Assembly: GCA_016212185.1 (NCBI GenBank)
Contig: JACRGX010000061.1
Coordinates: 4,333 to 68,332 of the forward strand
DNA length: 64,000 bases
From: Nitrospirota bacterium
GTDB lineage: Bacteria; Nitrospirota; Thermodesulfovibrionia; UBA6902; DSMQ01
Reading direction: 5' to 3'
Below are positions 5,214 to 45,171 of the stretch, piece by piece (within the stretch, counting starts at the first letter, position 1; every line of letters starts with the position of its first letter). The translations under genes were made by a program, and so were the position numbers. A model generated the notes under the pieces. That model was given only the letters and a program-made list of their open reading frames with translations. It was not told the DNA's origin and searched no databases.

Positions 5214-6794
5214 CTACAACTTCCCCAGCGTCCTAATAAGCGCCTCGGCTTTTTTGAGCGTTTCGTAATATTCCTTTTCCGGTTCGGAATCCGCCACAAT
5301 ACCGGCGCCTGCCTGCACATAGGCGATATTGTTTTTAATCACAAAGGTCCTGATGATAATGTTTAAATCCATGGTCCTGTTAAAACCGATGTATCCGAAT
5401 GAACCTGTGTAAGGTCCTCTTGCAACCGGCTCAAGCTCGTCAATTATTTCCATGCACCTTACCTTTGGGACTCCGGTAATGGTCCCTCCGGGGAATGCAG
5501 CCCTTATTGCGTCAAAGCAGTCTCTGCCTTTTGCAAGCGTGCCGCTGACATTGGAAACTATATGAATCACATGCGAGTAGTCCTCTGTCGCCATGAATTC
5601 ATCAACAAGGACCGAGCCGTAGTCGGAAATTCTGCCGAGGTCATTTCTCTCAAGGTCAATGAGCATCAGATGCTCTGCGCGTTCTTTTTCATTAAGCAGG
5701 AGTTCTGCCCGCATTTTTTTGTCGCCTCCGGCATCTGCCCCCCTTGGTCTTGTGCCTGCAATCGGTCTTGTTTCAACAGTATTCCCCTGAATCCGCAACA
5801 GTCTTTCAGGAGATGAACTTACTATGTGATAATCTCCCATGTTCAGATAACCTGCAAACGGGGATGGATTTATCTCTTTTAATTGCAGATAAATCTGCCA
5901 TGGCGTTGTATTCCCTATGTCAGCCGAGACCCTCTGCGAGAGATTTGCCTGGAAGATGTCCCCTGCCTTGATGTATTCTTTTGCTTTTCTGACAATATTC
6001 ATATATTTTTCTTTGCCCATTTCATGGTGAATCTCAATTTTTTTAAGGCGTTCAAATTGTTTAAATTGTTCAAGCTGTTCAAACGAATTTAAACTATTTG
6101 AACTAATTTTTTTATATAGCGCATTTATCTTTTCACACGCCCTGTCGTAATAACTGCCATAATCAGATTGGGGATTAGGCTTTGGGGATTGGATATTGGA
6201 CTTTTGACTGTTTGCCCCCTTGAACGATTGAACGCTTGAACTGAGTATTTGCTCCGCTCCATGGCATGAGATGATAAAAACCTTTTTATCTTTATGGTCA
6301 AAGGCAATCACGGTATCAAAGAATAAAAAGTGTGCATCAGGGATTTTAAGGTCATCAATCACGGTCTTCGGCAGGCGCTCAAAGTACTGGACAAAATCAT
6401 AACTCAGAAGACCCACTGCACCGCCGATAAAAGGAGGAAGATTTGGAGGAGAGTCAATCTTACAGCATGTGAGCAGTTCCTTTAATGTTTTAAGAGGTAC
6501 GGTGGTGTTAAATATTCTTTGTCCCTTTGTCCCTTTGTCCCTTTGCCCCTTTGTTTCTATTTCCACAACCCCGTCTTTTACTTTAAAAATTAAAAACGGC
6601 TCAATTCCGGCAAATGAATACCGCGCAATTTTTTCAGGGCCCTTTGCGCTTTCAAGCAGGAAACTGTATGGGCTTTCCAGAGTATTGTAAATTTCGTGAG
6701 GCGGCGTAAAAGGCAGTTGAGCATAAACAGGATATATTATCCCTGTTTTAGCGGCTTCTATGAAATTATTTTTGTCAGGAAGGATATTAAGCAT
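5214..6794 (-). CDS. chorismate-binding enzyme, anthranilate synthase component I family (TrpE/PabB)
   Basis: 526 aa. The C-terminal chorismate-binding domain is GTRPRG...LLLNEKERAEHLMLIDLERNDLGRI...PGGTITGVPKVRCMEIIDELE. An LLES motif (SFLLESA) near the N-terminus favours TrpE. No glutamine amidotransferase partner is adjacent. The gene carries two in-frame repeat insertions. Confidence 0.8.
   Translation of the reverse strand: MLNILPDKNNFIEAAKTGIIYPVYAQLPFTPPHEIYNTLESPYSFLLESAKGPEKIARYSFAGIEPFLIFKVKDGVVEIETKGQRDKGTKGQRIFNTTVPLKTLKELLTCCKIDSPPNLPPFIGGAVGLLSYDFVQYFERLPKTVIDDLKIPDAHFLFFDTVIAFDHKDKKVFIISCHGAEQILSSSVQSFKGANSQKSNIQSPKPNPQSDYGSYYDRACEKINALYKKISSNSLNSFEQLEQFKQFERLKKIEIHHEMGKEKYMNIVRKAKEYIKAGDIFQANLSQRVSADIGNTTPWQIYLQLKEINPSPFAGYLNMGDYHIVSSSPERLLRIQGNTVETRPIAGTRPRGADAGGDKKMRAELLLNEKERAEHLMLIDLERNDLGRISDYGSVLVDEFMATEDYSHVIHIVSNVSGTLAKGRDCFDAIRAAFPGGTITGVPKVRCMEIIDELEPVARGPYTGSFGYIGFNRTMDLNIIIRTFVIKNNIAYVQAGAGIVADSEPEKEYYETLKKAEALIRTLGKL
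6052..6110. repeat. TTGTTCAA-family degenerate tandem block, in-frame inside trpE/pabB
   Basis: ttcaaattgtttaaattgttcaagctgttcaaacgaatttaaactatttgaactaat. On the coding strand it is translated as a low-complexity EQLEQFKQFERLKKIEI segment. Confidence 0.7.
6528..6562. repeat. octanucleotide tandem repeat (TTTGTCCC)x4, in-frame inside trpE/pabB
   Basis: tttgtccctttgtccctttgtccctttgcccctttg. It encodes ETKGQRDKGTKGQR in the minus-strand reading frame. Confidence 0.8.
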
Positions 6795-7085
6795 TAAAAA
6801 TTTTTGCTCTTTCTAACAAACGATGTCATTCTCCAGTCGATGCGACTCCTTGCGGAGATCCGCTTTGGACTTGACCAGGGAATCCAGAAATTATCTCCTC
6901 ATACAAATCTTTCCTTAATCTTGTAGCCCCGTTCAGTTACCTGCTTAACTGCTTCAGGATTTATTGCCATGATTTTAATATAAATAATAGTTATTTTAGC
7001 CTGCTATTGCAAGCACGAAATAAGAAAATTAAAAATACGCCGGAAATACATTTGAATTTGTAAAATTGTTCAGACAAATATCTTT

Positions 7086-8039
7086 TTGTTTATGATAAAA
7101 TCTATCAATGGAGAATCAGTGGAAAAAATTATTCTGAAAACAGAAATGCCTGATGTGGGCGTTCCGCGGTGCGGAAAGGTGAGGGACCTTTACGACCTTG
7201 GCGAGCATCTGCTTCTTGTTGTAACCGACAGGGTTTCCGCCTTTGACGTTGTTCTGCCAAACGGCATACCCGGAAAGGGAAGGGTGCTTACGCAGATTTC
7301 CATTTACTGGTTCAGGCAGATGGAAGATATCATCAAAAACCATATAGTTGCAACTGATGTCAGGGATTTCCCTGAAAAACTCCGTAAATATCATGAGATG
7401 CTTGAAGGCAGGAGCATGCTTGTGAAAAAAGCAAACCCCATGCCTGTGGAATGTATTGTCAGGGGATATCTTTCGGGTTCCGGATGGAAGGAATATAAAG
7501 AAAAAGGCGTTGTATGCGGCATAAAACTTCCTGCCGGGCTTGTGGAATCATCCAAGCTCCCTGAACCGGTTTTTACTCCGAGCACTAAGGCGGATGAAGG
7601 GCATGACATTAATATATCTTTTAATGAAATGAAACGCATTGTCGGAGATGAGACTGCGGAAAGATTGAGGAGTGCGAGCATTAAGATTTATTCAAAGGCA
7701 AGGGATTTGGCTGAGAAAAAAGGCATAATAATTGCCGACACAAAATTTGAATTCGGCATTTACCCCGCTAAAAACTCATTGATTTCAAGCGGGGTGAACT
7801 GCGGTAAGTTAATCCTGATAGACGAACTTCTGACGCCGGATTCATCCCGCTTCTGGTCCTTAAGAGATTATGCGCCGGGCAAAGGGCAGGACAGCTTTGA
7901 CAAGCAGATTGTCAGGGATTACCTCCTCACGCTTGACTGGGATAAGAGTTATCCCGGGCCTGAACTCCCTGAGGAAATTGTTTCAAAGACGGCACAGCGA
8001 TATAAAGATATACTTAAGGTATTAGCCGCAACGGTTTAA
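7086..8039 (+). CDS. purC: phosphoribosylaminoimidazole-succinocarboxamide synthase (SAICAR synthetase)
   Basis: 317 aa. Conserved segment [43 protein letters not shown]. Confidence 0.9.
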
Positions 8040-10093: not shown

Positions 10094-11422
10094 ATGCAGA
10101 AAAATAATCCGGATGTTTTAAAAATGATTGTTAAGCAGTTTTTTATTGTTGCTGTATTTATTTTTTTAGCCGTCAATGCGATATCTGCCGATATTGTTAC
10201 ATTTGAGAAAGAATACACATATCAGTCAAGTGAGATTGACAGCGAGGTTTCATGCAGGATAATTGCGCTGAAACAGGTGAAAAGACTTCTTATTGAGGAA
10301 ATTAAAAATTATCTTGAAAGCAGAGGACTCACAAAGGATTTGCATCTGACAAAAGACCGGATTACCACCATAATTGCAGGGGCAGTCAGTGTTGAGATAA
10401 TAGATGAAAAATGGGATGAGAAGAAATATTTTATTAAAGCCAAAATTTCAGCCAATCCGGACATTACAATCAGAATTATTGATTTCATCCGCAGCGGCGA
10501 ACAAAGGATGAAAGAATTGGAGGCAGTGGACAAAAAATCAGCAGATTTTTTTATGGAACTTGAAAAATTGAGAAAAGAACTGCAGGCGGTTAAGACTGAT
10601 AGCAACGAGCCCGGACTGAGAGATAAAAAGATAATTGCTCAATATAATGAAACTGCAAGGAAATTAGGTGCAACCTACTGGTTTGAACAAGGATATATTG
10701 CCGTAATAACAGCCAATCACAAAGAAATAATAGATGCCTTTACAAAAACCATTGAACTTGACCCCGGATATACAGAGGCTTATCGTCAACGCGGGACTGC
10801 TTATGTGATGTTGAGTAAATTTCAAGAAGCAGTCAGTGATCTTGACAAGGTTATTGAGCAGGACCCCCAAGATGAATGGGCTTATAATAACCGCGGGTTT
10901 GCTTTTAAGGAATTAGGCAGATACCGTGAAGCAATCAAAGATTTAACGCGGGCAGTAGAACTGAATCCCGAACTTCAAATTTATTATAACCGTGGAATTG
11001 CTTATATTAATACCGGCAAATATCAGGAGGCGCTTAAGGACTTTGACAAGGCGATTGAACAAAACCCAAAAAATGAAAAGAATTACTATAACCGGGGGAT
11101 TGCTTACAGAGAATTAGGCAGATATCAGGAGGCAATTAAGGACTTTGACAAAGCCATTGAGATGTTTCCCGGATATGCGCTGGCTTATAACAGCAGGGGG
11201 CTTGCCTACGGCAAATCTGGAAAATATAAAGAGGCTATTAAGGATTTTAACAAGGCTATTGAACTAAATCCAAAAGATGCAGAGGCTTTTAATAACCATG
11301 GAGTTGCAAATTTCAGCCTTGGCAAAGAAAAAGAGGCTGTCAAGGATTTTAAAAAAGCGGCAAAATTAGGGCATAAAGGCGCACAGGAGTATCTGAAATC
11401 ACGGGGCATCAAGTGGGAATGA
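10094..11422 (+). CDS. secreted tetratricopeptide-repeat protein
   Basis: A signal peptide MQKNNPDVLKMIVKQFFIVAVFIFLAVNAISA is followed by nine or more TPR units (AYNNRGFAFKELGRYREAIKDLTRAVELNP and similar). The track ORF begins at 10043 and overlaps the GGDEF gene; the ATG at 10094 is more plausible. Confidence 0.7.
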   Translation: MQKNNPDVLKMIVKQFFIVAVFIFLAVNAISADIVTFEKEYTYQSSEIDSEVSCRIIALKQVKRLLIEEIKNYLESRGLTKDLHLTKDRITTIIAGAVSVEIIDEKWDEKKYFIKAKISANPDITIRIIDFIRSGEQRMKELEAVDKKSADFFMELEKLRKELQAVKTDSNEPGLRDKKIIAQYNETARKLGATYWFEQGYIAVITANHKEIIDAFTKTIELDPGYTEAYRQRGTAYVMLSKFQEAVSDLDKVIEQDPQDEWAYNNRGFAFKELGRYREAIKDLTRAVELNPELQIYYNRGIAYINTGKYQEALKDFDKAIEQNPKNEKNYYNRGIAYRELGRYQEAIKDFDKAIEMFPGYALAYNSRGLAYGKSGKYKEAIKDFNKAIELNPKDAEAFNNHGVANFSLGKEKEAVKDFKKAAKLGHKGAQEYLKSRGIKWE

Positions 11423-11643: not shown

Positions 11644-11985
11644 AGCAGGCATAAATACCCTCTAAATTCCAGGAAAACAGTAAAATTATTGAATGTCATG
11701 CTGCAAATTTTGTGGTTTTTGCTCAGGACTATTGAATAGAAGGCAGCATGACTTTAATGTACTGCCCTGAAATTCTTCAGACATCCATCCCTGCTTGTCT
11801 TACACGCAGGGATGAACGCTTGAAGCGGCAGGTATAGGTATCTGAAAAAGCTTTAGAGCAACACCGCTGAATGTCATGTTGCCTTTTTGGGATGTTGGTT
11901 TAAAGAGAAGACTTTAAAGTTTGCAACATGACTTGTTATTATTATTGTTGCGTTCTAAAGATTTTGAAGGTATCTATACCTGTCG
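11644..11985. repeat. family-2 structured dispersed repeat (~340 bp), full copy 1
   Basis: About 90% identical to 29254..29573 over its whole length. It contains the internal inverted repeats gtcatgctgc/gcagcatgac and atgtcatgttgc/gcaacatgac. It sits between the RHH gene and the ampG stop. Confidence 0.8.
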
Positions 11986-11998
11986 CCAATAGCTATAA

Positions 11999-13240
11999 TT
12001 ATTTGTGTTTTTCAGAGTTCCATGGCGCGAATTTCACAAGAAGCAGTATCCCCGGAACTGCTATTAAAGTGCACACAATAAAAAAACCTTCCCATCCGGT
12101 GTTTTTTGCCAGAAAACCCGTAGGCGCTGAGGCAAGCACCCTCGGAACTCCCATGAGACTGCTTAAAAGCGCATATTGTGTTGCGGTAAACTTTTTATTC
12201 GTGATGCTTGCCATGAAAGCGACATATGCGGTTGTGCCCATGCCGCCTGTCAGGTTCTCAAAGCCGATTACTGCGGACAATGCAGGCAGGCTGTGCCCGA
12301 TGCGCGCAAGTACGGCAAAGCCGGCGGTAGATACAGCCTGAAGAAAACCAAATATCCACAGCGAGCGGTTGATCCCGAGCCTGAGCATGATTATTCCGCC
12401 CGTGAGACTGCCTGCGATTGTAGCCCAGAAACCAAACAATTTGACTATGGCCCCGATTTCTGTTTTCGTAAAACCCAGGTCCAGATAAAAGGGCGTTGTC
12501 ATTGCGCTTGCCATGGTGTCGCCGATTTTGTATAAGAGTATAAATGCCAGCATCCATAATGCACCCTGACGGCTGAAATATTCCCTGAGAGGATTTAAAA
12601 CAGCATCTCTTAAACTCGCGGGCGGAGCAACTGCAACTTGGGGTTCTCTTACCGTCAATGTGGTTATGCCTCCGATTAGCATACAGCCTGCCATTATTAT
12701 ATAAACCATGCGAAATGACATGTAATCTGCCATTATCAATCCGCCGCCTGAAGCCAGAAGCATTCCCACGCGGTATCCGTTGACATATAATGAAGACCCA
12801 AGCCCCAATTCTTCATCAGCTAAGTCCTCCCTACGGTAGGCATCCACAACAATATCCTGAGAGGCGCTGAAGAAGGTCACAAGGAGCGCTGCAGAGGCTA
12901 ACATCCATGGATTTTTTACGGGGTCAGTGAAAGCAAGCGCGACAACAGATAAAATTAAAAAAAACTGCGCCATAAGCATCCAACCTCTCCGTCTGCCCAG
13001 AAACGGCAGGGTAAAGCGGTCAAGCAAGGGAGCCCATAGGAATTTTATTGTATATGGCAGACCGACAAGCGCCATCAGCCCTATTAGCGTCAGATCTACC
13101 CCCTCTTCCTTCATCCAGGCCTGCAGTACTGTTATGGTTAAAAGCAGGGGCAGGCCGCAGGCAAAACCCATGACAAAGGCTGTCAGCATGCGGCTGCTGA
13201 AAATTGATTTCAGAATGGGTTTGCGTTTTTCAGATAGCAT
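11999..13240 (-). CDS. ampG: MFS transporter, AmpG/PAT-family muropeptide permease
   Basis: 413 aa and about 12 TM helices. The AmpG-like N-terminus reads LAFSSRMLTAFVMGFACGLPLLLTITVLQAWMKEEGVDLTLIGLMALVGLPYTIKFLWAPLLDRF. Confidence 0.75.
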   Translation of the reverse strand: MLSEKRKPILKSIFSSRMLTAFVMGFACGLPLLLTITVLQAWMKEEGVDLTLIGLMALVGLPYTIKFLWAPLLDRFTLPFLGRRRGWMLMAQFFLILSVVALAFTDPVKNPWMLASAALLVTFFSASQDIVVDAYRREDLADEELGLGSSLYVNGYRVGMLLASGGGLIMADYMSFRMVYIIMAGCMLIGGITTLTVREPQVAVAPPASLRDAVLNPLREYFSRQGALWMLAFILLYKIGDTMASAMTTPFYLDLGFTKTEIGAIVKLFGFWATIAGSLTGGIIMLRLGINRSLWIFGFLQAVSTAGFAVLARIGHSLPALSAVIGFENLTGGMGTTAYVAFMASITNKKFTATQYALLSSLMGVPRVLASAPTGFLAKNTGWEGFFIVCTLIAVPGILLLVKFAPWNSEKHK

Positions 13241-13397
13241 CGTATCTCAATAGTTTTGTCTTTGAGGACGCAGACATTGCTCAAAAATTTATTTAACCTG
13301 ATGATGATATTGAAAGTATCTTTAAACGCTGATAATTAATATTTACCGTCAAACATTAGTTAAATGTGCGTTAAGGTATCAGAAAATAAATTTTTTC

Positions 13398-14141
13398 TCA
13401 ACATCTGCATCCTCCGTATTCTATAGAAAATTTTGGTCTTAAAATAATCATTCCCGGTTTATTCCTTATGTACTCCCTGAAATTCTGCTCAACCACCTTT
13501 CCCTTTTCAGAGGAGGCGTGTCTTAAATTGACTGCATTGCCGTTTTTAATAATAATCCCGACATGCGAAACATCAAGCCCCTGCATATCCGAATATATCC
13601 CCGCATAATCGCCTGTCTTGATTTTATCCATCACAGCATCATCAATAACGCCTGAAGGAATATATTTAATCTCTCTCCGAACAGGCTTAATGCCGTTTAT
13701 AAAAAATGTGCCGTCTGCTTTTTTATTCAGGATTTTAGCGATGATTTTTGTCTTTCTGCCGCCGGTTTTTGCCGTAACATCATCAATAAACTCCGAATTA
13801 AACTCTCTCCAGTCTGTAAAAAAGTGATTTCTGTTTTCAAACGCTATTTTCCCGTTTCTGTACCTTACATTTTTTAGATTTTCCATAAATTCAGAAAATG
13901 AGCCTGACAGCCGCATTGACTCTATGTAATCAAGATAGGTAAAGCAGTCAATGCCTGAAAGATTTACCGCAAGAACTTCCGGAATATCAGCACTGCCGGT
14001 TAGAGTGGATTCTTTATAATCAATATTAAGAAAATGCCGTGAAAGAAAATCTATGCGCGCGCCGGTGTCTTTAATTTTCGCGGATTGATGCAGTAAGCTG
14101 TCAAGTTTATTCTGAGTCCATTTGCCTAAAGTGATATGCAC
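13398..14141 (-). CDS. DUF1460-like protein (N-acetylmuramoyl-L-alanine amidase-like / NlpC-P60-like fold)
   Basis: 247 aa. The segment ARIDFLSRHFLNIDYKESTLTGSADIPEVLAVNLSGIDCFTYLDYIESM resembles the DUF1460 N-terminal signature. A candidate nucleophile Cys lies in GIDCFTY and a His in DVSHVG. The family call is from memory and unverified. Confidence 0.4.
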   Translation of the reverse strand: MHITLGKWTQNKLDSLLHQSAKIKDTGARIDFLSRHFLNIDYKESTLTGSADIPEVLAVNLSGIDCFTYLDYIESMRLSGSFSEFMENLKNVRYRNGKIAFENRNHFFTDWREFNSEFIDDVTAKTGGRKTKIIAKILNKKADGTFFINGIKPVRREIKYIPSGVIDDAVMDKIKTGDYAGIYSDMQGLDVSHVGIIIKNGNAVNLRHASSEKGKVVEQNFREYIRNKPGMIILRPKFSIEYGGCRC

Positions 14142-14145
14142 GAAG

Positions 14146-15597
14146 TTATTTTATTATATCCGCCGTGAAAGTATAAAGCTGCGAATTTTTCCACGCATCT
14201 TTCGGAAGCCCTGCCTTAAGCGAGACATTTTCAAGGAATGCGTTTACATCCCATTTATATTCCGTTGCGACCTGCGGAAGCAGTATGCCTGAATTTTCTC
14301 CGCTGACAATAAACAGCCCGTGAACGCCAATTTTTATATCTTTAATATTTTGTAAAGCTACAAGCGGCGAGAGCACGGTTACCTCCACTTCCATATCATT
14401 TAATTCCTCTGCTCTCACAGGCGAGAACCTGTAATCTTTTGATGCCGCCGATACCGCATTTCTGATTACAGACTGATACAGGGGCATGAAGGGCTGAATA
14501 TTGCCTATACAGCCGCGGAGATTGCCCTGCCTGTTTATAGTGACAAAGGTGGCTCCGTTTGCCATCAGCCTCGGGTCTTTTGTTTCAGCCTGCAAGACTT
14601 CGTTGTGTTTGACATAATGGAGAATTGTATTTTTGGCAAGTGAAAGGATCTCTTTTTTTTGCGCCTCTGTAAGCGTGCTCATGTACAAACCCATTGCAGA
14701 ATATCCTACGACCCGGTTTTTATCATTAGTCACATCTCCTGAGTTTGCGTATTTATAAACAACGCCGTTCGTGGCGCCTAATGCCCTTGCAACCGCCATG
14801 GTGAACATCACGGGAAATCCTCCGCACATCTCTCCCTGACCGCTTGCCATAAGCCTCTCAACCTCTTCTGTGGACAACCTGCTTATTGCGTCAATGGTTT
14901 TGCTATCCATATTGACAGCGGTTTCATAGTCATGGTAATGAGAAAGGTCAGTGCTTGCAATGATTATTGCCTTTTCATTTTTCCTGAGTATTTCTGTCAG
15001 CTTTTCCGTAAGGAATTGAAAAGACTCCCTTGTCGGCGAGCCGATAAGAATGGGGACGATGCTGAAATTTTTCAATGACTGCTGAAGAAATGGCATCTGC
15101 ACCTCAAGCGAATGTTCTTTTTCAAAGGCAGCAGGGTAAAAGGCGACATTTGCCTTTTCGTTTATCAGGGATTTTGCGATTTTTTTATTAATCGCTATTT
15201 TCCCGAGAGGCGTCTTCATACTGCCTTTGGTATATACGGACGCGCCTGTAAAGGTACTGTAATGGCTTGGGCCTATGAGAATGACTGTATCAACATCACG
15301 TTCTTTTAAATGCCTGTAAGAGTAGGCGGCGACATGCCCTGAAAACTCATACCCTGCATGCGGGGATATGAGCGCGATTAGCCTGCCGTCAACTGGTTTG
15401 TATTCAGCCGCTGAAAGAAAGCCGTCAACCATTTCCTTCAGGGTCTTGGCATCAGCCGGATAAAAGGCCCCTGCAACAGATGGTTCTTTTACCTTTCCCT
15501 CACATCCGGAAACAATGAACAGCAAACAGCAGACAGTGAACAGTAAACAGTGAACGGTGAACAGTGAACTGTTTACTGTGAACTTACTAAGTCTCAT
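14146..15597 (-). CDS. AmmeMemoRadiSam system fusion protein: Memo-like (protein B) N-terminal domain plus AMMECR1 (protein A) C-terminal domain, with lipoprotein-like signal peptide
   Basis: The Memo signature is SVAGAFYPADAKTLKEMVDGFL...LIALISPHAGYEFSGHVAAYSY. The AMMECR1 signature is RLMANGATFVTINRQGNLRGCIGNIQPFMPLYQSVIRNAVSAASKDYRFSPV. The N-terminus MRLSKFTVNSSLFTVHCLLFTVCCLLFIVSGC ends in a lipobox-like VSGC and is encoded by CAGTGAA-type heptamer repeats. Confidence 0.8.
   Translation of the reverse strand: MRLSKFTVNSSLFTVHCLLFTVCCLLFIVSGCEGKVKEPSVAGAFYPADAKTLKEMVDGFLSAAEYKPVDGRLIALISPHAGYEFSGHVAAYSYRHLKERDVDTVILIGPSHYSTFTGASVYTKGSMKTPLGKIAINKKIAKSLINEKANVAFYPAAFEKEHSLEVQMPFLQQSLKNFSIVPILIGSPTRESFQFLTEKLTEILRKNEKAIIIASTDLSHYHDYETAVNMDSKTIDAISRLSTEEVERLMASGQGEMCGGFPVMFTMAVARALGATNGVVYKYANSGDVTNDKNRVVGYSAMGLYMSTLTEAQKKEILSLAKNTILHYVKHNEVLQAETKDPRLMANGATFVTINRQGNLRGCIGNIQPFMPLYQSVIRNAVSAASKDYRFSPVRAEELNDMEVEVTVLSPLVALQNIKDIKIGVHGLFIVSGENSGILLPQVATEYKWDVNAFLENVSLKAGLPKDAWKNSQLYTFTADIIK
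15514..15585. repeat. degenerate (CAGTGAA)n / (TTCACTG)n heptanucleotide tract
   Basis: aacagcaaacagcagacagtgaacagtaaacagtgaacggtgaacagtgaactgtttactgtgaac. It forms the signal-peptide coding region of the Memo-AMMECR1 fusion. Confidence 0.8.
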
Positions 15598-15792
15598 CTG
15601 TATTCCTCCAGAACATAGCTTTCTTGGGTTCGGATTTTACAGCGGGTTTAATCTTTTTATAAAAAAGGCTGACGAGCCCGCCTAAAAGAAAGAAACCTAA
15701 AAAATCTCTCCTTGTCATGATATTAACCCCCAAACCTTTTCTGAAGCAGACATAAATTCCCTCAAAAATTTTAGAATGCAAAAATTTATTAA

Positions 15793-15953
15793 GTTTTCAA
15801 TACCCAATTCCGAAAGTCTTCGGGACCGTGGGGTTTCCTTATACTTCCCTCCACCTTGACGGGGGAGGGCGAGGGTGGGGGTGATTAAGATGCTGTTTCC
15901 ACCCTCCCCTTCATCCCCTCCCGTCAAGGGAGGGGAGACTTTAGGATACCCTG
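15793..15953. mobile_element. MITE-like GC-rich palindromic dispersed element, copy A (~160 bp)
   Basis: Near-identical to 32243..32404, and its core matches 25905..26020. It has long imperfect inverted arms cccttgacgggggagggcgagggtggggg / caccctcccc..tcccctcccgtcaaggg. It lies between the radical SAM gene and the Memo fusion gene. The track ORF 15715..16032 is just its translation. Confidence 0.8.
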
Positions 15954-15989
15954 CGATATTCGCCATTTCTCTAAAATTATTGCTATCCC

Positions 15990-16964
15990 TCATCCCCATA
16001 CCCCCGGAATGACAGCACCGCAGAATCTGCACCTGCCTCCGGAAATATTATTCCGCATAACTGCATAACCGATTCTCGCAATCAGAAGCTGTTTGCAGTG
16101 ATGACAGTATGTGTTCTCAGCATCGCTCCGCATATTGCCGATATAAACGTATCTGAGCCCTGCATCCATTGCCGCTGAGTGCGCATCCCTCAGCGTCTCA
16201 ACAGGTGTAGGGGGCAGATTGGTTAATTTATAATACGGGAAAAACCTTGAAAAGTGTATCGGGATGTCGGCGCCGAGGTTTTTAACAATCCACCTGCACA
16301 TCTCCGTTATAGTTTTTACATCATCATTAAGAGTAGGGATAACGAGATTGGTAATCTCAAGCCATACACCTTCCCGTCTAAGCGTTACAAGAGTATCCAG
16401 CACGGGTTTCAGCATTCCCCCGCATATCCTGTTGTAAAAATCCTCTGTAAATGCCTTCAGGTCCACGTCTGCCGCATCCATATATTTTGAAAGCTCCCTC
16501 AGCGGTTTTTCATTAATATAACCGCATGTGTGCATAGTGTTTTTCACATTAAAATTCCGGGCGATTTTAGCAGTATCAAACATGTATTCATAAAATACAG
16601 TCGGCTCAGTGTAGGTGTAGGTTATGGTCCTGCAGTTGTTGAACATTGCCTGCCTTACGACTTCGTCAGGAGGCAGGTCAAGGTTATCGGCGTCTTCAGG
16701 CTTTGCCTGAGATATCTGCCAGTTCTGGCAGAACTTGCATCCGAGCACACAGCCTGCAGTTGCAATTGAAAATGCCGTTGTTGCGGGAAGGAAGTGATAA
16801 AACGGCTTTTTCTCAATGGGGTCAATGGCGACTGAACACGGCTTTCCGTACACAAGGCTGTAAAGGACGCCGCCTTTGTTAATCCTTGCCCTGCATCCGC
16901 CAACCTGATAATCCTCAAGCAGGCATTCCGTGGGGCAAAGCTCGCACAGCACCTTCTTGCTCAT
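15990..16964 (-). CDS. AmmeMemoRadiSam system radical SAM enzyme
   Basis: 324 aa. A CxxxCxxC-type cluster lies in TAGCVLGCKFCQNWQIS, with an extra N-terminal Cys motif CELCPTEC. It sits beside the Memo/AMMECR1 gene, as is typical for this three-component system. Confidence 0.85.
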   Translation of the reverse strand: MSKKVLCELCPTECLLEDYQVGGCRARINKGGVLYSLVYGKPCSVAIDPIEKKPFYHFLPATTAFSIATAGCVLGCKFCQNWQISQAKPEDADNLDLPPDEVVRQAMFNNCRTITYTYTEPTVFYEYMFDTAKIARNFNVKNTMHTCGYINEKPLRELSKYMDAADVDLKAFTEDFYNRICGGMLKPVLDTLVTLRREGVWLEITNLVIPTLNDDVKTITEMCRWIVKNLGADIPIHFSRFFPYYKLTNLPPTPVETLRDAHSAAMDAGLRYVYIGNMRSDAENTYCHHCKQLLIARIGYAVMRNNISGGRCRFCGAVIPGVWG

Positions 16965-17113
16965 GCTTAATTATAACTTAAAAAGGCTATTAACCACAGA
17001 GGACACAGGAAAAATATTCATTGTAAATTTATCATTGCAAAGTTAGCATTTTAAAATTTGCAATTTGAAATGATAATTGATAATTTTGCAATAATATTGT
17101 GGCAAGGACCGGT

Positions 17114-17314
17114 CTATTCCTTCTCCCGCCAGTACATCCCCTTATGCAGGCTCAGCCCTTTTTGAGAAATCACATTCTCATAATAAACCTTTCGCTCAAG
17201 ATAGCCTTCTATCCCTGGCATTAGATACTCCTGAAGAATGTTATAAGAGAGCGTCAGGGCTATGAGAATTGCCGAAAAATATGTTAAAAGCTTAAATTTC
17301 CTTTCGTTGTTCAT
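17114..17314 (-). CDS. small hypothetical membrane protein (one predicted TM helix)
   Basis: 66 aa. Hydrophobic stretch LLTYFSAILIALTLSYNIL. It starts 7 nt after the stop of the upstream antitoxin-like gene on the same strand. Confidence 0.3.
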   Translation of the reverse strand: MNNERKFKLLTYFSAILIALTLSYNILQEYLMPGIEGYLERKVYYENVISQKGLSLHKGMYWREKE

Positions 17315-17320
17315 GTGCGA

Positions 17321-17530
17321 TTATTTTTTCGCAAACATATCATTAAAAGAAACAGTTTTTAATTTCCCGGCTTTATAGGCTTTCAGTCTTTTCTCTGCTT
17401 CCTCTGCCCAAATTTTTTCAATTTCAGGGTCTGGAACATCCAGGCTTTTCATTAAGGCTTCAATCACTATGGATTTTTCCGCTGGTTTAAGGTGCAATGC
17501 TTTTGATATTATTTCTTTTGTTGGCGACAT
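17321..17530 (-). CDS. putative addiction-module antitoxin component (TIGR02574-like)
   Basis: 69 aa. MSPTKEIISKALHLKPAEKSIVIEALMKSLDVPDPEIEKIWAEEAEKRLKAYKAGKLKTVSFNDMF matches the conserved pattern of this family (ALxLP.EER..L...L..SLD.PD.EI...W..E...R...Y..G). Confidence 0.65.
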   Translation of the reverse strand: MSPTKEIISKALHLKPAEKSIVIEALMKSLDVPDPEIEKIWAEEAEKRLKAYKAGKLKTVSFNDMFAKK

Positions 17531-17760
17531 AATTTTTACCTCCCAAATATCTTTTATGTTCTGATAAATTATAGCATAAATTTACAAACTTAATTATAAG
17601 AATCCTGCGAGTTGGGTTGTACGGGTTAGGTCTTGAAATATAAGGCTGTATCAGAAAGGATATTCGTTGAGAGATACAACGGATTATTTAGACGTTCATT
17701 GCTGCTGTTGTCAGTAAGATGATAATAAAAACAGAATAAAAATGATATTTCAAGATCTGA

Positions 17761-17785
17761 CCCCAATCCCCGACCCCAATCCCCA
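17761..17785. repeat. CCCCAAT-type heptamer repeat (STRR1-like)
   Basis: ccccaatccccgaccccaatcccc, in an intergenic region. Confidence 0.6.
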
Positions 17786-17854
17786 CGTTAAAAGAATTTA
17801 CACAAAAGTCTTGACACTACCTAAAGCGGTTTCCACGCCCGACGATTAACTTTG

Positions 17855-17880
17855 CTTTACTTTATATGATATAAGTAAAG
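17855..17880 (+). promoter_or_regulatory. imperfect palindrome ctttactt-N10-aagtaaag, candidate operator of the AbrB/MazE-type gene
   Basis: Inverted arms CTTTACTT / AAGTAAAG lie 20 nt upstream of RBS GGAAGGAGG and the ATG at 17901. A TTGACA hexamer lies at 17811-17816. Confidence 0.4.
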
Positions 17881-17900
17881 CAAGGGAAGGAGGTGTTTTT

Positions 17901-18119
17901 ATGCAGACTGTGCGGCTTAGCTCAAAGAACCAAATAGTTATTCCCAAAGAGGCGCGTGAGGCAATGAAGCTTAAAGGACAGGATGAGCTTCTTGTTATTG
18001 TGAAAGGTGATGTTACTATAATTATGCCTAAGCCTAAAAGTTATAGAAAAGACCTCTCAGGCGCAGGCAAAGGGATATACGCAAAGGCATATCTTCACAA
18101 GGAACGGAAGTCTTGGTAA
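17901..18119 (+). CDS. AbrB/MazE/SpoVT-family DNA-binding protein (antitoxin-like), apparently orphan
   Basis: 72 aa. VRLSSKNQIVIPKEAREAMKLKGQDELLVIVKGDVTIIMPK is the swapped-hairpin AbrB-type domain. No toxin gene follows. Confidence 0.65.
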   Translation: MQTVRLSSKNQIVIPKEAREAMKLKGQDELLVIVKGDVTIIMPKPKSYRKDLSGAGKGIYAKAYLHKERKSW

Positions 18120-18165
18120 AACATTTTTACTTTACTTGTTCATACTAATTACTATCCACTGTTTA

Positions 18166-19377
18166 CTATTCACTGCCTTTATAACACCTATTGCATCTGA
18201 TGCACTCTGATATGTGCGGAGACGGTTTATTTCCCATCGGGCAGTCATGCCTGCTCGGGTAGCCGTCAGCCTTTCTTGAAAATAGCCCTGTAAATGCCGC
18301 AACAGGGCACAGATACCTGCACCAGAAGCGCTCTACTTTCAGATTTGCAATAAGCGACACGGCAACCAGCGTCCATGTAAAAACATTTCCGCTGAATGAA
18401 AACAGGGTTACATATGTTTCATAATTTCCGTAATCAATTCTTTTGCTGATAAAAACAATAGCTATAATCACCCCAAGCAGGACATATTTTAATCTGCGCC
18501 ATTTATCATCAGTTTCTTTCGGGACCTCCCATTTTTTAAACGGAAGCCTGCCTGCAAATTCGCACAATGCGCCAAACGGGCACAGCCATCCGCAGTAGAA
18601 TCTTCCCGCAATAATTATTGACAGTATTGTGCTTCCGGCTGTTACATACCAGATGATTGCAGAAGAGTGTCTGAGAAGCAGGAGGTTAAAAACATGCAGA
18701 ATTGAAAAAGGACTTGAAAGATATAAACCAATAATGATTATTCCTGCAAGCAAAGTGATGTCGCGCGACTTTAAAAATTTCTTTGAGCGCCTTGCCGCAA
18801 AATAGAAAGTCAGCGACGCTAAAAACAATAACAAATACCATATCCAGTTAATGTCTGTCGTCATGACCGCTTCTTCTGCGCCGGCAGTTAATCCGTAGAC
18901 GTTTAATGCGATTATTCTTGAGGAGTTTTTTATGGACTTTGCCAGCGCTGTAACGCTTACAGTGGCCCTGCTTATGCCGTCAATGTCTTTGTCAATTTCA
19001 AACGGGTCGCTGATGCTTTTGCCTATGAACCGGTTAAGATATTGCGGGCTTTCCATGTAATGAACGTAATTTTTTGTCTCGCTGTGTCCGATAATTTTTA
19101 TCCCTGTAATTTTCCCTTCCCTATTTAATGAAATTAGAGTTTTTATCGGGCCTGCATATCCTCTGATAGAGGGCATAATGTCATAAGTATTAAATGCTGC
19201 AATGCCTTCATCTGAAAAATAATGAGGGGGAGCGCCGCCTTTTTCGGCAAATGTGATGTCAGGCGCAATATCTTTGAGAAATTTCCTTTCATCAATGAAT
19301 TCCTCAGGATGCAGGAGGTATCCTAAAATGAGTGAGACGATTGCTGTGAGAAGCAGAATTATTCTAATTTTTTTCAT
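18166..19377 (-). CDS. membrane protein with periplasmic FMN-binding domain and NapH/NosR-like CX3CP motifs
   Basis: 403 aa. An N-terminal TM anchor is followed by an FMN_bind-like region (DGISRATVSVTALAKSI) and multiple TM helices with CGWLCPFG and CRYLCPV motifs. Confidence 0.55.
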   Translation of the reverse strand: MKKIRIILLLTAIVSLILGYLLHPEEFIDERKFLKDIAPDITFAEKGGAPPHYFSDEGIAAFNTYDIMPSIRGYAGPIKTLISLNREGKITGIKIIGHSETKNYVHYMESPQYLNRFIGKSISDPFEIDKDIDGISRATVSVTALAKSIKNSSRIIALNVYGLTAGAEEAVMTTDINWIWYLLLFLASLTFYFAARRSKKFLKSRDITLLAGIIIIGLYLSSPFSILHVFNLLLLRHSSAIIWYVTAGSTILSIIIAGRFYCGWLCPFGALCEFAGRLPFKKWEVPKETDDKWRRLKYVLLGVIIAIVFISKRIDYGNYETYVTLFSFSGNVFTWTLVAVSLIANLKVERFWCRYLCPVAAFTGLFSRKADGYPSRHDCPMGNKPSPHISECIRCNRCYKGSE

Positions 19378-19448
19378 GTTTGACTCTTTATGTTTTATAC
19401 AACGGCATACATGTCCTTAAAACTTTAAGAATACAACAATGATTATTA

Positions 19449-19553
19449 TCTGTCATGCTGCAAAAATTTTTAAGTATTTGCCCTGAGCTATGTGTAAAAA
19501 GGCAGCATGACACTAATGTGTTGCCTTAAAGTTTTGCAGACATATATACCGTT
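19449..19553. repeat. family-2 structured repeat, short deletion derivative (copy 2)
   Basis: tgtcatgctgcaaaaattttt...ggcagcatgacactaatgtgttgcc shares the first hairpin module with 11644..11985 and 29254..29573. Confidence 0.6.
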
Positions 19554-19588
19554 GTTGTCCATTCTGAACCTTGTATTTAAACACAATA

Positions 19589-21694
19589 CTAAATCCCCTC
19601 TTTAATGGAAAAGAGCAATGCCAGCGATGATAGTTTTAATAATGCCACAAACAGGAGTGTATTTTGAATCCCCAGCAAGGGCACAAAAAATATTGCCGTA
19701 AGAAATGCTCCTAAGAATGACCCTGCAAGGTCCAGGGCATAAAGTTTTCCGGCAATATTTGATAATCCCCCAATCTCCCCTAAAAATTTATTTGCCGCCA
19801 CAAATTCCGCGCCTGCAATCAGCCCGCCTGAAAAACTGAGCAGATAGAAAACAAATTCGTCTTTAAAAAAAAGCGGAGAAGTGATTAACAGCAAAATAGT
19901 CAAAACTTCGCATGTCTTCAGCCTGAATAAAGATTTTTTCATATGTTTTGTAATATATGCGCCTGCCGCAATTCCTGCCATAAAAGTCGCTGTGAGTATG
20001 CCTATCATTTCATATATGTATCCGAATGCCGACTGATAAGTCAGGATTATCACTATTGAAAAAGCCATAGCCGAGTATCCCGTAGTAAAAATGGAGTAGT
20101 GCGCTGACTGAACTTTTTTACGCAAAACAAATACAGCAGTGATGAGCATGATGATTGCCGCCGCTATAAGCCATTTTTCGTATTCAGGCACGGACATGAG
20201 CATATCAATCTTCTGCGCCTCTGCCCACAGCATCAGGTTATAAAGATAAGCGGCGGGACGCAGATCATTATTTACAGCCTTCGTCTTTCCGAGCCGTTCT
20301 TCCAGCGCCCTGACCTTTAACGGAGAGAAGGCATCTTTTATGATGTAAGGATGAAAATATTTTGTGCCGATTATTTTTTTGGAGAACCTGCTTTCAAGCA
20401 TTTCCGGTCTCGTGTCCATAAAACTATCCGAGGCAAGCATGATACCGTATTCTTCAGAAGATACACTGACATTTTTAAAGACGCTTTTTAATGAATTAAA
20501 AACAGAGCCGTTTGCAATCTGCATCCTTTTCCCGACATAGCCCGATGATGTGGGAAGAGACAGGGAAAGCATACCGCCCTGTCGCAGGACCTTGTGAGCT
20601 TCTTTGAAAAACTCAACAGTATAAAACCTGTTAATACCGGCAGTGGAGGGTTCAGGCAGGTTGAGAACAACAAGGTCGTACCGGGTATTTTGAAGAGTCT
20701 TAATAAATTTTCTTGCGTCTGCTGTTATTATCCGGAGCCTTTTATCATTCAGTATATTTCTGTCCTCCGGACTGAGTATTCCAAAAGAAACATTTATCAT
20801 CTCAGGGTCTATCTCAATGAAGTCAATCCTTGAAGCGCTGTATTTTAAAAATTCCCTTAATACTGAGGGAGAGCCGCCGATTACAATTACATCCTGAATA
20901 TTTTGTGAAGGATGAGCTGACACCGTCAGGTGAGCTTTTATCTCTTCTGTCTGAGGGTCGGGGTATGAAAACTGAAATTTGCCTAAAGAATAGACATTAA
21001 ACTGCTCTCTGATTTTTAAGACCGCAATCTCTCCGTATCGCGATTCCACTTTTTTAATGAGTTGGAGGCCTTTTAATTGGCTCAGCAGCGACAGATCTAT
21101 TCTATTGATTCCGGCATACAGGGCAAGCGGGATTAACAGCAGTGCGATTAAAAAGCGTTTTTTTATGAGCAGCAGCGCGATTATACAGTTCAGGATGCTT
21201 ATTGACAGGGAAAGCGTTAATGCATTTACTCTGCCTGACAGCAGTAATACAAATAATATCCCTCCTGTAAATGCTCCTGCTGCCTCAATGCCGTATACCT
21301 TTGCTGTTTTCCCCTGAGTGTGGGAAACCGCAAGCGGAAACTGCATGCCGACAGCCATGCAGAGAGGGAGGAGCGTTATGACTGTGGCAATCAAGGTGAT
21401 GCCGAGGGGTATTGTTTCTCCGAATCCTATTGAGAAACAAGGTCGGATTAAACTTATAAACAGAACTGTTAACTGCACAAAAAGTGCAACTGCAAAAAAT
21501 GAAAGGGCAAAACCCTGTATGGATTTAAGCCTGCGGCCCGCATAGCTTCCTATGCCTGTAATAATTAACCATACGGACAGCGTTATCCCGATATCAAGTT
21601 CATTGCCGGAGAACACAGAAAGTAGCTGTCTCAGTGCAGTTATCTGCATGAGTATTGAGGTTAAGCCTATTGTGAAAATGGCAACGGCCTGCAT
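19589..21694 (-). CDS. polytopic membrane protein fused to a spermidine/spermine synthase-like domain
   Basis: 701 aa. There are about 7 N-terminal and about 5 C-terminal TM helices. The central domain has the aminopropyltransferase signature VIVIGGSPSVLREFLKY...IDFIEIDPEMI...DLVVLNLPEPSTAGINRFYTVEFF. Confidence 0.7.
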   Translation of the reverse strand: MQAVAIFTIGLTSILMQITALRQLLSVFSGNELDIGITLSVWLIITGIGSYAGRRLKSIQGFALSFFAVALFVQLTVLFISLIRPCFSIGFGETIPLGITLIATVITLLPLCMAVGMQFPLAVSHTQGKTAKVYGIEAAGAFTGGILFVLLLSGRVNALTLSLSISILNCIIALLLIKKRFLIALLLIPLALYAGINRIDLSLLSQLKGLQLIKKVESRYGEIAVLKIREQFNVYSLGKFQFSYPDPQTEEIKAHLTVSAHPSQNIQDVIVIGGSPSVLREFLKYSASRIDFIEIDPEMINVSFGILSPEDRNILNDKRLRIITADARKFIKTLQNTRYDLVVLNLPEPSTAGINRFYTVEFFKEAHKVLRQGGMLSLSLPTSSGYVGKRMQIANGSVFNSLKSVFKNVSVSSEEYGIMLASDSFMDTRPEMLESRFSKKIIGTKYFHPYIIKDAFSPLKVRALEERLGKTKAVNNDLRPAAYLYNLMLWAEAQKIDMLMSVPEYEKWLIAAAIIMLITAVFVLRKKVQSAHYSIFTTGYSAMAFSIVIILTYQSAFGYIYEMIGILTATFMAGIAAGAYITKHMKKSLFRLKTCEVLTILLLITSPLFFKDEFVFYLLSFSGGLIAGAEFVAANKFLGEIGGLSNIAGKLYALDLAGSFLGAFLTAIFFVPLLGIQNTLLFVALLKLSSLALLFSIKEGI

Positions 21695-21795
21695 TTTTAA
21701 ACAGCCTCCCCTTTGTCAATTATAATTCGCCATCAGAAAAATGGGAATAGCTGTTTTGGCAGAAGATTTTGTAGATGCCTGTACCTGGTGTCTAT

Positions 21796-21957
21796 CCAGC
21801 AGGGACGAATACCTTCATAATTTCAGGAAAACAGTAAAGATTCTTTAATATCATGCTGCAAATTTTGTGGTTTTTTCTCAGGACTACTGAATAGAAGGCA
21901 GCATGACTCTGATGTACTGCCCTGAAATTTCTCAGGCATTATTCCTGCTGACTAATG
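21796..21957. repeat. family-2 structured repeat, 5' half (copy 3)
   Basis: cagggacgaataccttcataatttcaggaaaacagtaaaga...gcagcatgactctgatgtactgccctgaaatttctcagg is about 90% identical to the first 160 bp of copies 1 and 4. Confidence 0.7.
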
Positions 21958-22097
21958 CATTGGGATAACAGTTGGTTGAGAAGGTATCTGTACCGGCTAT
22001 TTGTGGAGAGGGGGGTAGTTTGAGAGCCGGATTTATATTGCTTCAATCCGGCCCGTAAAGCTTATGTCATATTGACAGTTTTACGTGACGCCATGGT

Positions 22098-25904: not shown

Positions 25905-26020
25905 TACTAAACCCTCCCCCTTGACGGGGGAGGGTAAGGGTGGGGGTGATAAGATGTTATTTTCACCCTCCCCTACATCCCCTCCCGTCAAGGGAGGGGA
26001 GATTTCGGGATGCCCCGCGG
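25905..26020. mobile_element. MITE-like GC-rich palindromic element, truncated copy B
   Basis: ccctcccccttgacgggggagggtaagggtgggggtgataagatgttattttcaccctcccctacatcccctcccgtcaagggagggga matches the core of copies A and C. It lies between cysK and the cysM-like gene. Confidence 0.75.
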
Positions 26021-29235: not shown

Positions 29236-29591
29236 TGCATGGTTATACGCAGGGACGAATACCTTCAAAATTTCAGGAAAGCAGTAAAGATTTTTCAATG
29301 TCATGCTGCAAATTTTCAAAGTTTTTCCGCAAAGCCGTTTATAAAGGCAGCATGACTTTAATGTACTGCCCTGAAATTCTTCAGGCATCCATCCCTGCTG
29401 ACCAATGCATAGAGCTGAACGCAGGTATAGGTGTCTGAAAAAGCTTTAGAGCAACACCGCAGAATGTCATGTTGCCTTTTGGAGATGTCGGTTTAAAGAG
29501 AAAACTCTAAAGTTTGCAACATGACTTGTAATTATTATCGTTGCGTTCTAAAGATTTTGAAGATATCTATACCTGCATGGTTATACGCAGG
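29236..29591. mobile_element. family-2 structured repeat, full copy 4, flanked by an 18-bp direct repeat
   Basis: The direct repeat tgcatggttatacgcagg occurs at 29236-29253 and 29574-29591. The core 29254..29573 is about 90% identical to 11644..11985. It lies between mqnB and moaA. Confidence 0.8.
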
Positions 29592-32209: not shown

Positions 32210-32242
32210 ATGCCGCTCCTTTCTGCTTTTAACTCGTATTAA

Positions 32243-32404
32243 ATTTTCAATACCCCATCCCGAAAGCCTTCGGGACTGTGGGGTGTCCTTATACTTCCCT
32301 CCCCCTTGACGGGGGAGGGCGAGGGTGGGGGTGATTAAAATGCTGTTTCCACCCTCCCCTTCATCCCCTCCCGTCAAGGGAGGGGAGACTTTAGGATACC
32401 CCGC
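32243..32404. mobile_element. MITE-like GC-rich palindromic dispersed element, copy C
   Basis: Near-identical to copy A over ~160 bp. It is inserted between the tolB stop and the pal start. Confidence 0.8.
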
Positions 32405-32424
32405 CGGCTCTGCGGCGGGGAGGT

Positions 32425-40672: not shown

Positions 40673-40728
40673 CAACAGTGAACAGTGAACAATAAAAAAA
40701 TAAATATAAACAACTTCCGGATTAAGGC

Positions 40729-45101: not shown

Positions 45102-45171
45102 CACTGCTTTAAGATAGCTGTTATTATTTCAAACTCTACACTGTTAACTGTCAACTGTTCACTGTTTTTAA

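Follow-up and report, generated by a model that had tools for sequence, protein, structure and literature searches.

A twin-arginine-type signal encoded as a separate micro-gene in a putative extracytoplasmic branch of the AmmeMemoRadiSam system

The conservation of AMMECR1 and Memo reaches from archaea to humans, and AMMECR1 lies in a human disease region. Together with a radical S-adenosylmethionine (SAM) enzyme, these domains form the AmmeMemoRadiSam system, for which Memo-AMMECR1 fusions and the link to a radical SAM gene were already noted in 2007 (Balaji and Aravind, 2007; PMC2034487). RNA base modification, proposed in the same study, is the only standing functional prediction for the system (PMC2034487), and the family has been listed among the top-priority uncharacterised archaeal proteins (PMC6393860). 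Literature on AmmeMemoRadiSam, on AMMECR1 with radical SAM and on radical SAM with twin-arginine translocation (Tat) yielded no functional study and no exported version. Here, we describe a locus of this system in a 64,000-nucleotide (nt) stretch of DNA from a Nitrospirota bacterium (contig JACRGX010000061.1, positions 4,333 to 68,332; hereafter the window) and compare it with loci from other genomes and metagenomes, numbered with the prefix L. Judged from sequence and gene context, there is an about even chance that the locus represents an extracytoplasmic branch of AmmeMemoRadiSam, in which a small protein (SM) docks on the folded, Fe-S-containing radical SAM enzyme (RS) and carries it through Tat. 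The elements at the center of this proposal are the following.

15990-16964, minus strand: RS, radical SAM enzyme, 324 aa, no signal (TIGR04337)
15587-15718, minus strand: SM, small protein, 43 aa plus stop, with a Tat-type motif, a hydrophobic stretch, a basic linker and a tail
14146-15597, minus strand: Memo-AMMECR1 fusion protein, predicted lipoprotein, 483 aa (TIGR04336 and TIGR04335)
15502-15597, minus strand: predicted signal peptide of the fusion protein, lipoprotein type, 32 codons

All coordinates in a first-pass annotation, which had been made from the sequence alone, were confirmed against the open reading frame (ORF) listing and by direct reading of the minus strand. Its assignment of the locus to AmmeMemoRadiSam is also borne out, as all three signature domains score above cut-off in adjacent, co-oriented genes. 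RS matches TIGR04337 with 369.2 bits (cut-off 220) and contains the CxxxCxxC motif as CVLGCKFC. The fusion protein combines the Memo (B) and AMMECR1 (A) domains on one polypeptide: residues 37-302 match TIGR04336 with 281.7 bits (cut-off 26), residues 316-481 match TIGR04335 with 171.5 bits (cut-off 99), and the catalytic-type motifs SPHAGY, DLSHYHDY, EMCGG, LRGCIG and DYRF are kept. The RS and fusion genes lie on the same strand, 392 nt apart, with SM and a repeat element between them. The SM ORF overlaps the ATG of the fusion gene (15597) by 11 nt, and GGAGG stands 8 nt upstream of that ATG.

Fusion of Memo and AMMECR1, which the first-pass annotation had singled out as unusual, is widespread. 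The fusion protein has 7,921 homologues at E <= 0.001, both domains are present in all of the best 120, the same fusion occurs in genome loci of Proteobacteria, Acidobacteriota, Planctomycetota and archaea, and such proteins had been noted in 2007, as mentioned above. The N-terminus of the fusion protein carries a conserved predicted Sec/lipoprotein signal. Its first 32 residues (MRLSKFTVNSSLFTVHCLLFTVCCLLFIVSGC) agree with the lipoprotein sequence pattern, a lipobox after a positively charged n-region and a hydrophobic core (defined as in PMC12462473): the n-region is MRLSK, the 19-mer hydropathy is 2.45, and V29-S30-G31-C32 agrees with the lipobox [LVI][ASTVI][GAS]C. The 120 best homologues span 59-74% identity. 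A Cys lies 8-13 residues ahead of AGxFYP in 100 of them, with G, A or S at position -1 in 95 of these, and a hydrophobic 12-mer precedes the conserved VKEPxVAGxFYP motif in 113 of 119; about 19 of the best homologues have a hydrophobic leader without Cys. The leader is missing from the fusions of Proteobacteria and other phyla at 30-40% identity, which start directly at RxPAVAGxFYP.

These homologues bear on the possibility that the leader, SM or both are artefacts, with the fusion protein starting downstream of a repeat-derived pseudo-leader and SM being a chance frame. The leader is made of a genome-wide heptamer repeat that also occurs between genes, and the SM ORF is short and has no family match, as would be expected on this account. 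Against it, the leader's position, hydrophobicity and lipobox are kept in 120 homologues at the identities given above, the stretch from the leader to AGxFYP contains neither ATG nor GTG in frame, and SM is conserved in 87 clusters, with synonymous variation. An artefact of this kind is barely credible. The lipoprotein-type leader reported in the first-pass annotation is thus upheld, whereas its proviso, that the leader would be a recent repeat-derived artefact if orthologues uniformly lacked it, does not apply, as 100 of 120 homologues have a Cys leader. The check for an alternative downstream start that it had proposed was run as well, and both candidates were rejected: a TTG at codon 25, without a ribosome-binding site, is the sole option within the leader for a cytoplasmic protein, and a start at the first in-frame ATG beyond the leader would leave the protein without its conserved AGxFYP motif.

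At its N-terminus, RS lacks the segment that normally precedes the CxxCPxxC motif. The protein begins MSKKVLCELCPTEC, and the Nitrospirota orthologues with a recovered RS N-terminus (L001-L003, L005, L007 and L008) start in the same way, with MSKKVLCELCP; RS of L006 is cut off by the contig end and provides no N-terminus. Cytoplasmic-type enzymes of the family begin ...PT[RK]YWH[KR]LDDGR[VI]QCxxCP, and TIGR04337 covers the window's RS from profile position 10 only. The enzyme of L011 (Margulisiibacteriota) matches the profile from position 1, with AKYWRKLED, and there the segment is preceded by a hydrophobic leader (MRRVVYLLLGLLLFVALAEA). In the archaeal locus L014, the same segment is preceded by a textbook Tat signal (MLAKISRRDFIRKGITAVGGLVIGAHA).

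Relatives of this kind have both pieces, a predicted signal and the segment, joined to the N-terminus of RS in a leader of Tat type or Sec-like type (the cis form). Among the best 120 homologues of the archaeal enzyme, from DPANN groups, Theionarchaea and Methanofastidiosia, 110 have [ST]RRxF[IL]K, followed by a hydrophobic region and LWKWSKEAYHYxKLGxNVQC. A metagenome scan with the L011 enzyme as query added 80 loci, whose RS leaders comprise 21 of RR Tat type, about 11 KR/RK variants and 38 hydrophobic, Sec-like ones; four enzymes are short and begin in the same way as that of the window. Many of the Sec-like leaders have an AxA site and then LKEA[LS]FYQKL. One bacterial homologue (L146) combines a twin-arginine motif with a lipobox in its N-terminus (VDRRAFMRTAAAALPCLAGC), which suggests a Tat-exported lipoprotein form of RS.

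The pieces that RS lacks are found in SM (MTRRDFLGFFLLGGLVSLFYKKIKPAVKSEPKKAMFWRNTDET). By sequence comparison, SM is the N-terminal signal of the enzyme plus the first strand of its N-terminal hairpin, encoded as a separate gene. A position-specific scoring matrix (PSSM) was built from 72 distinct cis-form segments, covering positions -17 to -7 before the first Cys. On this matrix SM tails average +14.8 bits, and 117 of 118 sequences share one register; shuffles give -1.65 +/- 0.32. The window's SM reaches 14.9 bits at EPKKAMFWRNT, a score attained by 9 of 20,000 shuffles. A PSSM from cytoplasmic-type proteobacterial N-termini, which the cis-form matrix replaced, was weak (p = 0.08 for the window; z of about 6.7 for the family). 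Global hhalign of the SM family against archaeal N-termini gives a colinear alignment (P = 7e-4), and in a chimera of SM and RS the TIGR04337 match starts at position 3, with a gain of 2-4 bits. Because SM scores as, and aligns colinearly with, cis-form N-termini, it can be read as the detached signal and strand of RS. AlphaFold2 modeling of an archaeal Tat-signal RS, with a mean predicted local distance difference test (pLDDT) score of 93, places the signal in a helix (residues 7-33) and the SM-homologous segment in a strand (62-64) that pairs with strand 69-71 just before the Cys motif, at a pLDDT of about 95.

The same comparison bears on a different role for SM, that of a Tat-exported precursor peptide that RS would modify at AMFW in the cytoplasm and the periplasmic Memo-AMMECR1 lipoprotein would then process. 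A small conserved ORF that neighbors a radical SAM gene and has an invariant aromatic motif fits, in size and position, a precursor of a ribosomally synthesised and post-translationally modified peptide; the fold of RS is that of an enzyme acting on a protein loop, and the HXS system provides a precedent in which a cytoplasmic radical SAM enzyme matures a Tat-exported effector (PMC13128918). However, the tail that would serve as the core peptide scores as, and is colinear with, the enzyme's own N-terminal strand in 72 cis-form relatives, where that strand is predicted with confidence to fold within the enzyme. RS in SM-type loci lacks exactly that strand, and most systems of the family have no such peptide. 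A substrate role for SM is quite improbable, and SM is treated below as a detached part of RS.

SM stands between the RS and fusion genes in seven of the seven Nitrospirota loci that cover the region, the stops and starts of the genes overlapping or abutting one another. Among 5.8 billion proteins, a profile search gave 41 members, and an exhaustive search of 1.84 billion representatives gave 87 clusters at 50% identity, of 32-104 aa but for one repetitive hit of 486 aa; no fusion of SM to a larger protein occurs among the 87. Scans to E = 10 returned no Pfam or NCBIfam match for SM, and family members are named "hypothetical" in their sources. The consensus is M-T-R-R-[DE]-F-[LF]-x-F-F-L-L-G-G-L, a basic linker of variable length, and [KE]-A-M-F-W-[RK]-[KR]; R3, R4, F6, G13, A34, F36 and W37 do not vary among the 41 sequences, and T2 is kept in at least 90% of them. 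Comparison of the window's ORF with that of L001, a relative with 94% identity, shows 6 synonymous and 3 non-synonymous differences. In every case SM immediately precedes a fusion gene with a signal, as it also does in L081, L083 and L084. In L166, a short RS is followed by a small ORF reading ...QTRRRFLGMLGALGAMVSLPALGSRKCRLSRHEASFYRKG, which represents a second SM lineage. A "PARFW" subclade of SM (L083, 1013-1138; L084, 153-287) lies upstream of a fusion gene, and no radical SAM gene adjoins it; its upstream neighbor in L083 is a gene of the FAD_binding_2/Succ_DH_flav_C type.

The Tat consensus is S/T-R-R-x-F-L-K near the N-terminus. SM reads M-T-R-R-D-F-L-G, so that the twin-arginine-like motif that the first-pass annotation had seen in this ORF is present, with the K position not kept. 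Its h-region (FLGFFLLGGLVSLFY) is 15 residues long with three Gly, which is below the 19-mer transmembrane threshold and within the range for Tat h-regions (about 12-20 residues). Some SM subclades have an AxA-type site, for example KVKA-E or AKA-E, and the window's SM could possibly act as an uncleaved signal anchor. The first-pass annotation placed the ORF between the MITE copy and the fusion gene but missed that it is a conserved gene and a fourth component, homologous to signal-bearing RS N-termini. A frameshift joining the SM ORF to the fusion gene was considered and rejected, as the frame runs into TAG TAA and all seven loci keep the two ORFs apart.

Predicted signals on RS, in cis or via SM, and on its fusion partner occur together or not at all. 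All loci with a signal on the fusion protein (11-12) have a leader on RS or an SM gene, and 43 loci have neither; two apparent exceptions were traced to over-long ORF calls. The signal-bearing state takes at least three arrangements: SM supplied in trans, or a leader in cis that is of either the Tat or the Sec-like type. Genes for the Tat translocase accompany some of these loci. In DPANN archaeal contigs, tat genes lie within about 0.5-1.5 kb of operons of Tat-signal RS and fusion genes: TatC and TatA stand beside the operon in Woesearchaeota L085/86 (6662-7538), TatA in L014 (6356-6490) and TatC in L119. No tat genes occur within the 64-kb window.

Genomic context indicates that the system extends upstream of RS to two genes that the first-pass annotation had missed.

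18166-19377, minus strand: predicted NosR/NapH-like membrane electron-transfer protein, 403 aa (PF04205, PF12801)
19589-21694, minus strand: predicted SpeE-like polytopic membrane protein, 701 aa (PF01564, PRK03612)

The NosR/NapH-like protein comprises an N-terminal anchor, an FMN_bind domain (PF04205) predicted to face outward, transmembrane segments with CxxxCP (Fer4_5, PF12801) and a C-terminal ferredoxin-type Cys cluster, with partial matches to NosR, NapH and RnfG models. Its gene is found beside the system in L001, L002, L005, L007 and L166. In 17 loci, a DsbD_2/CcdA-type membrane protein directly follows an RS with a Sec-like leader (L089, 30-4814, and 16 among L090-L116); the upstream genes of L089 encode flavodoxin, PNPOx-like, TrxB-like and DUF169 proteins. 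The SpeE-like protein has about six N-terminal and about seven C-terminal hydrophobic segments flanking a spermidine-synthase-like domain (PF01564, E = 9e-18; PRK03612, E = 3e-36, below the equivalog cut-off). Homologues adjoin RS in L005, L007, L011, L085/86 and 31 of the 80 metagenome loci (25 on the same strand), and none occurs in the cytoplasmic-type loci L015-L080. Across the loci compared, NosR/NapH-like, DsbD_2 and SpeE-like neighbors are confined to the signal-bearing branch.

In the mechanism that we propose, SM would bind RS in the cytoplasm, once the enzyme is folded and Fe-S-loaded, and would contribute the first strand of its N-terminal beta-hairpin; the Tat translocase would move the SM-RS pair across the membrane by the hitch-hiker route (reviewed in PMC10924467). 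SAM would be exported already bound to RS. On the outer face of the membrane, RS would meet the lipid-anchored Memo-AMMECR1 protein and receive electrons via the neighboring NosR/NapH-like protein, or via a DsbD-like protein in other lineages. The SpeE-like membrane protein would be a further partner, possibly tied to the supply or use of an adenosyl or aminopropyl donor. The target of RS would most likely be a protein or peptide, perhaps the Memo-AMMECR1 partner, or an envelope-bound molecule; the fold of RS, that of pyruvate formate-lyase activase (PflA), favors a protein or peptide. Taken as a whole, the scheme of a folded, cluster-loaded RS exported via Tat with a detachable 43-residue signal, supplied with electrons by transmembrane carriers and performing radical chemistry on the outer face, and of an ancient Memo/AMMECR1 pair acting on an envelope or protein substrate rather than RNA, has somewhat less than an even chance of being correct.

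Several observations weigh against export of RS. To our knowledge, no radical SAM enzyme acts outside the cytoplasm, and we know of no periplasmic SAM pool. Sec-like rather than Tat-like leaders, found on 38 of the 80 related enzymes, are hard to square with export of an Fe-S protein. The linker and tail of SM are very basic (about 6-9 K/R), and the positive-inside rule favors a tail inside the cytoplasm. An AxA cleavage site is missing from the SM of the window (KKIKPAVKSE). In L083, SM adjoins the fusion gene without RS, and the gene order RS-SM differs from that of a simple N-terminal split. Finally, in the AlphaFold2 model of the SM-RS chimera, the SM part has a pLDDT below 50, with the tail misplaced in the underlying alignment.

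The main rival to export places RS in the cytoplasm, where SM, with its N-terminus outside and its basic tail inside, would tether the enzyme to the inner face of the membrane by strand complementation; RS would then modify a membrane-bound or exported precursor, and the lipoprotein would finish the reaction outside. The 6-9 K/R of the SM tail fit this location, SAM and a low-potential reductant would be unnecessary outside the cell, and the SpeE-like partner is itself a polytopic membrane protein. The homology of the SM tail to the RS N-terminus fits equally well. However, the near-invariant T-R-R-x-F-L is a translocase recognition motif that a plain anchor does not need, and the hydrophobic stretch of SM, at about 15 Gly-rich residues, is short for a transmembrane helix. 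Leaders of the cis form have a positive n-region and often an AxA site, which would place RS outside, and TatA and TatC genes are adjacent in archaeal loci. Moreover, NosR-like and DsbD_2 partners, with their periplasm-facing electron output, have no obvious role if RS is inside. Tethering is considered unlikely, and export by Tat is the reading preferred here.

Two repeat elements lie within the locus.

15510-15583, no strand assigned: degenerate heptamer array, unit AACAGTG on the plus strand, encoding the hydrophobic core of the leader
15787-15954, no strand assigned: repeat resembling a miniature inverted-repeat transposable element (MITE) between the RS and SM genes, 168 nt

The first-pass annotation described the leader as built of heptamer repeats, and an array of period 7 (8.4 copies, 78% matches) and period 21 (3.5 copies) does underlie its hydrophobic core. 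Whatever the frame, (CTGTTCA)n encodes LFTVHCS, which can serve as a hydrophobic core. The array is longer in the window than in L001 by exactly 21 nt, that is, three units in frame. The same heptamer family encodes N-terminal hydrophobic segments of three further genes in the window, namely a TPR/YfiO-like lipoprotein gene (30584-31534; (CAGTGAA)n array at 31487-31518), the ATP synthase subunit b gene (37915-38526; (ACTGTTC)n array at 37962-37995) and the TolB gene (32425-33684; (CAGAACA)n array at 33576-33614). These three arrays are perfect or near-perfect; each yields one and the same 7-residue repeat in all frames, and a change of one unit would shift the frame, so that phase variation is a possibility at these genes. 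As the family is also intergenic (1312-1534, 40674-40691 and 45140-45166), it is a genome-wide repeat and not specific to the leader. For the fusion gene, evidence of a phase-variable contingency locus was not found: the array is only 78% matched, and its sole difference from L001 is an in-frame gain of 21 nt. Opa-type coding repeats of Neisseria resemble the fusion leader in that the hydrophobic core of a signal peptide is encoded by a short tandem DNA repeat with a unit length not divisible by three; they differ in that the array of the fusion gene is degenerate and its observed length change is in frame. The best reading is that the heptamers simply supply a tolerated hydrophobic core and represent a recent, lineage-level decoration.

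The MITE copy that the first-pass annotation saw between the RS and fusion genes is borne out as a MITE-like element: it is short and non-coding, has several copies and contains inverted repeats. Its internal inverted repeat is 30 nt long, with arms that are 77% complementary. Three copies of the 168-nt element occur in the window (100%, 95% and 79%), each containing an inverted repeat, the others being at 32237-32404 and at about 25926-26019; the element pattern is counted three times against an expectation of zero. It is absent at the same site in L001, where the spacer between RS and SM is 89 nt rather than the 271 nt of the window, the surplus being the 168-nt element, and in other relatives RS and SM overlap, abut or are separated by at most 53 nt. 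Accordingly, the insertion is a recent one, and it may weaken the translational coupling of RS and SM. The flanks in L001 are too diverged to place the exact ends of the element. For an OmpA/Pal-family gene (31598-32428), the longest ORF includes the copy at 32237-32404 in its 5' part; since the N-terminus of this ORF reads through the element, the gene probably has its true start downstream. Members of a second repeat family, 122-155 nt long and with 63-94% identity, occur at 11663-11982, 21818-21939 and 29267-29575, with direct copies just outside both ends of the block 11999-21694. This block holds the genes for the major facilitator superfamily (MFS) transporter, the AmiA-like protein, the fusion protein, SM, RS, the NosR-like protein and the SpeE-like protein.

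Downstream of the fusion gene, 5 nt past its stop, begins a gene of the AmiA-like amidase family (PF07313), followed by that of the AmpG/Acatn-like MFS transporter (the two spanning 11999-14141). The amidase-like gene is also directly downstream of the fusion gene in L001, where the MFS gene was seen in the ORF listing, and the amidase-like gene is absent from the other loci. A peptidoglycan-recycling link via the AmiA-like and AmpG-like genes was considered and rejected, as this neighborhood is conserved only in L001. Between the NosR-like gene and RS (17114-18119), antitoxin-like small genes are present (PF09720 at 17321-17530; MazE-like at 17901-18119), and L001 has no antitoxin-like ORFs in the corresponding stretch. 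Six tandem units of 102 nt (60-79% identity) at 10780-11364 correspond to TPR-like repeats inside a coding region. A promoter and terminator scan of 13200-17400 gave counts no higher than in shuffles, and an Rfam scan of 13000-22000 gave zero matches.

If the proposed export is true, RS would be the first known radical SAM enzyme to act beyond the cytoplasm, and SAM would serve there as a bound cofactor or one-shot co-substrate, with outside-facing carriers delivering the electrons. Encoding a Tat signal in a micro-gene of its own would constitute a new mode of protein targeting. Set against the standing prediction of RNA base modification, a large branch with export signals on all partners argues for an envelope or protein substrate, at least in that branch. 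More broadly, the SM family exemplifies functional genes that annotation leaves as "hypothetical."

Compared with known systems, the window has the three signature domains of AmmeMemoRadiSam (TIGR04335, TIGR04336 and TIGR04337), and its B-A fusion is common in the family. In canonical systems, as represented here by Proteobacteria and other phyla, none of the components bears a signal and the small gene is absent, whereas the branch seen in the window combines a predicted B-A lipoprotein, an RS without its first strand, SM, and SpeE-like and NosR-like neighbors. Tat hitch-hikers, such as the small and large subunits of [NiFe] hydrogenase and DmsAB, likewise pair a signal-less Fe-S protein with a second protein that carries the twin-arginine signal. 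They differ from the window, where the signal partner is not a whole subunit but only about 40 residues long (a signal plus a docking strand), a radical SAM enzyme would form the cargo, and complex and export are inferred. The closest solved fold to the family model is that of PflA, the pyruvate formate-lyase (PFL)-activating enzyme (Foldseek E = 1e-15, with a TM-score of about 0.8 normalized to PflA), which is also the next-best NCBIfam hit of RS, far below cut-off (55 vs. 232 bits). In contrast to PflA, RS has an additional N-terminal CxxCxxxC hairpin region and a C-terminal CxxC...CxxC module, and its locus has no glycyl-radical enzyme partner. The NosR/NapH-like neighbor shares the FMN_bind and Fer4_5/CxxxCP architecture of proteins that feed electrons to periplasmic enzymes; at 403 aa, it is far below the cut-offs of those families (64 vs. 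1000 bits and 51 vs. 213 bits), and its partner would be a radical SAM system instead of an N2O or nitrate reductase. By these comparisons, the locus is a member of a known system, in an undescribed and apparently exported branch with an extra, unannotated micro-protein.

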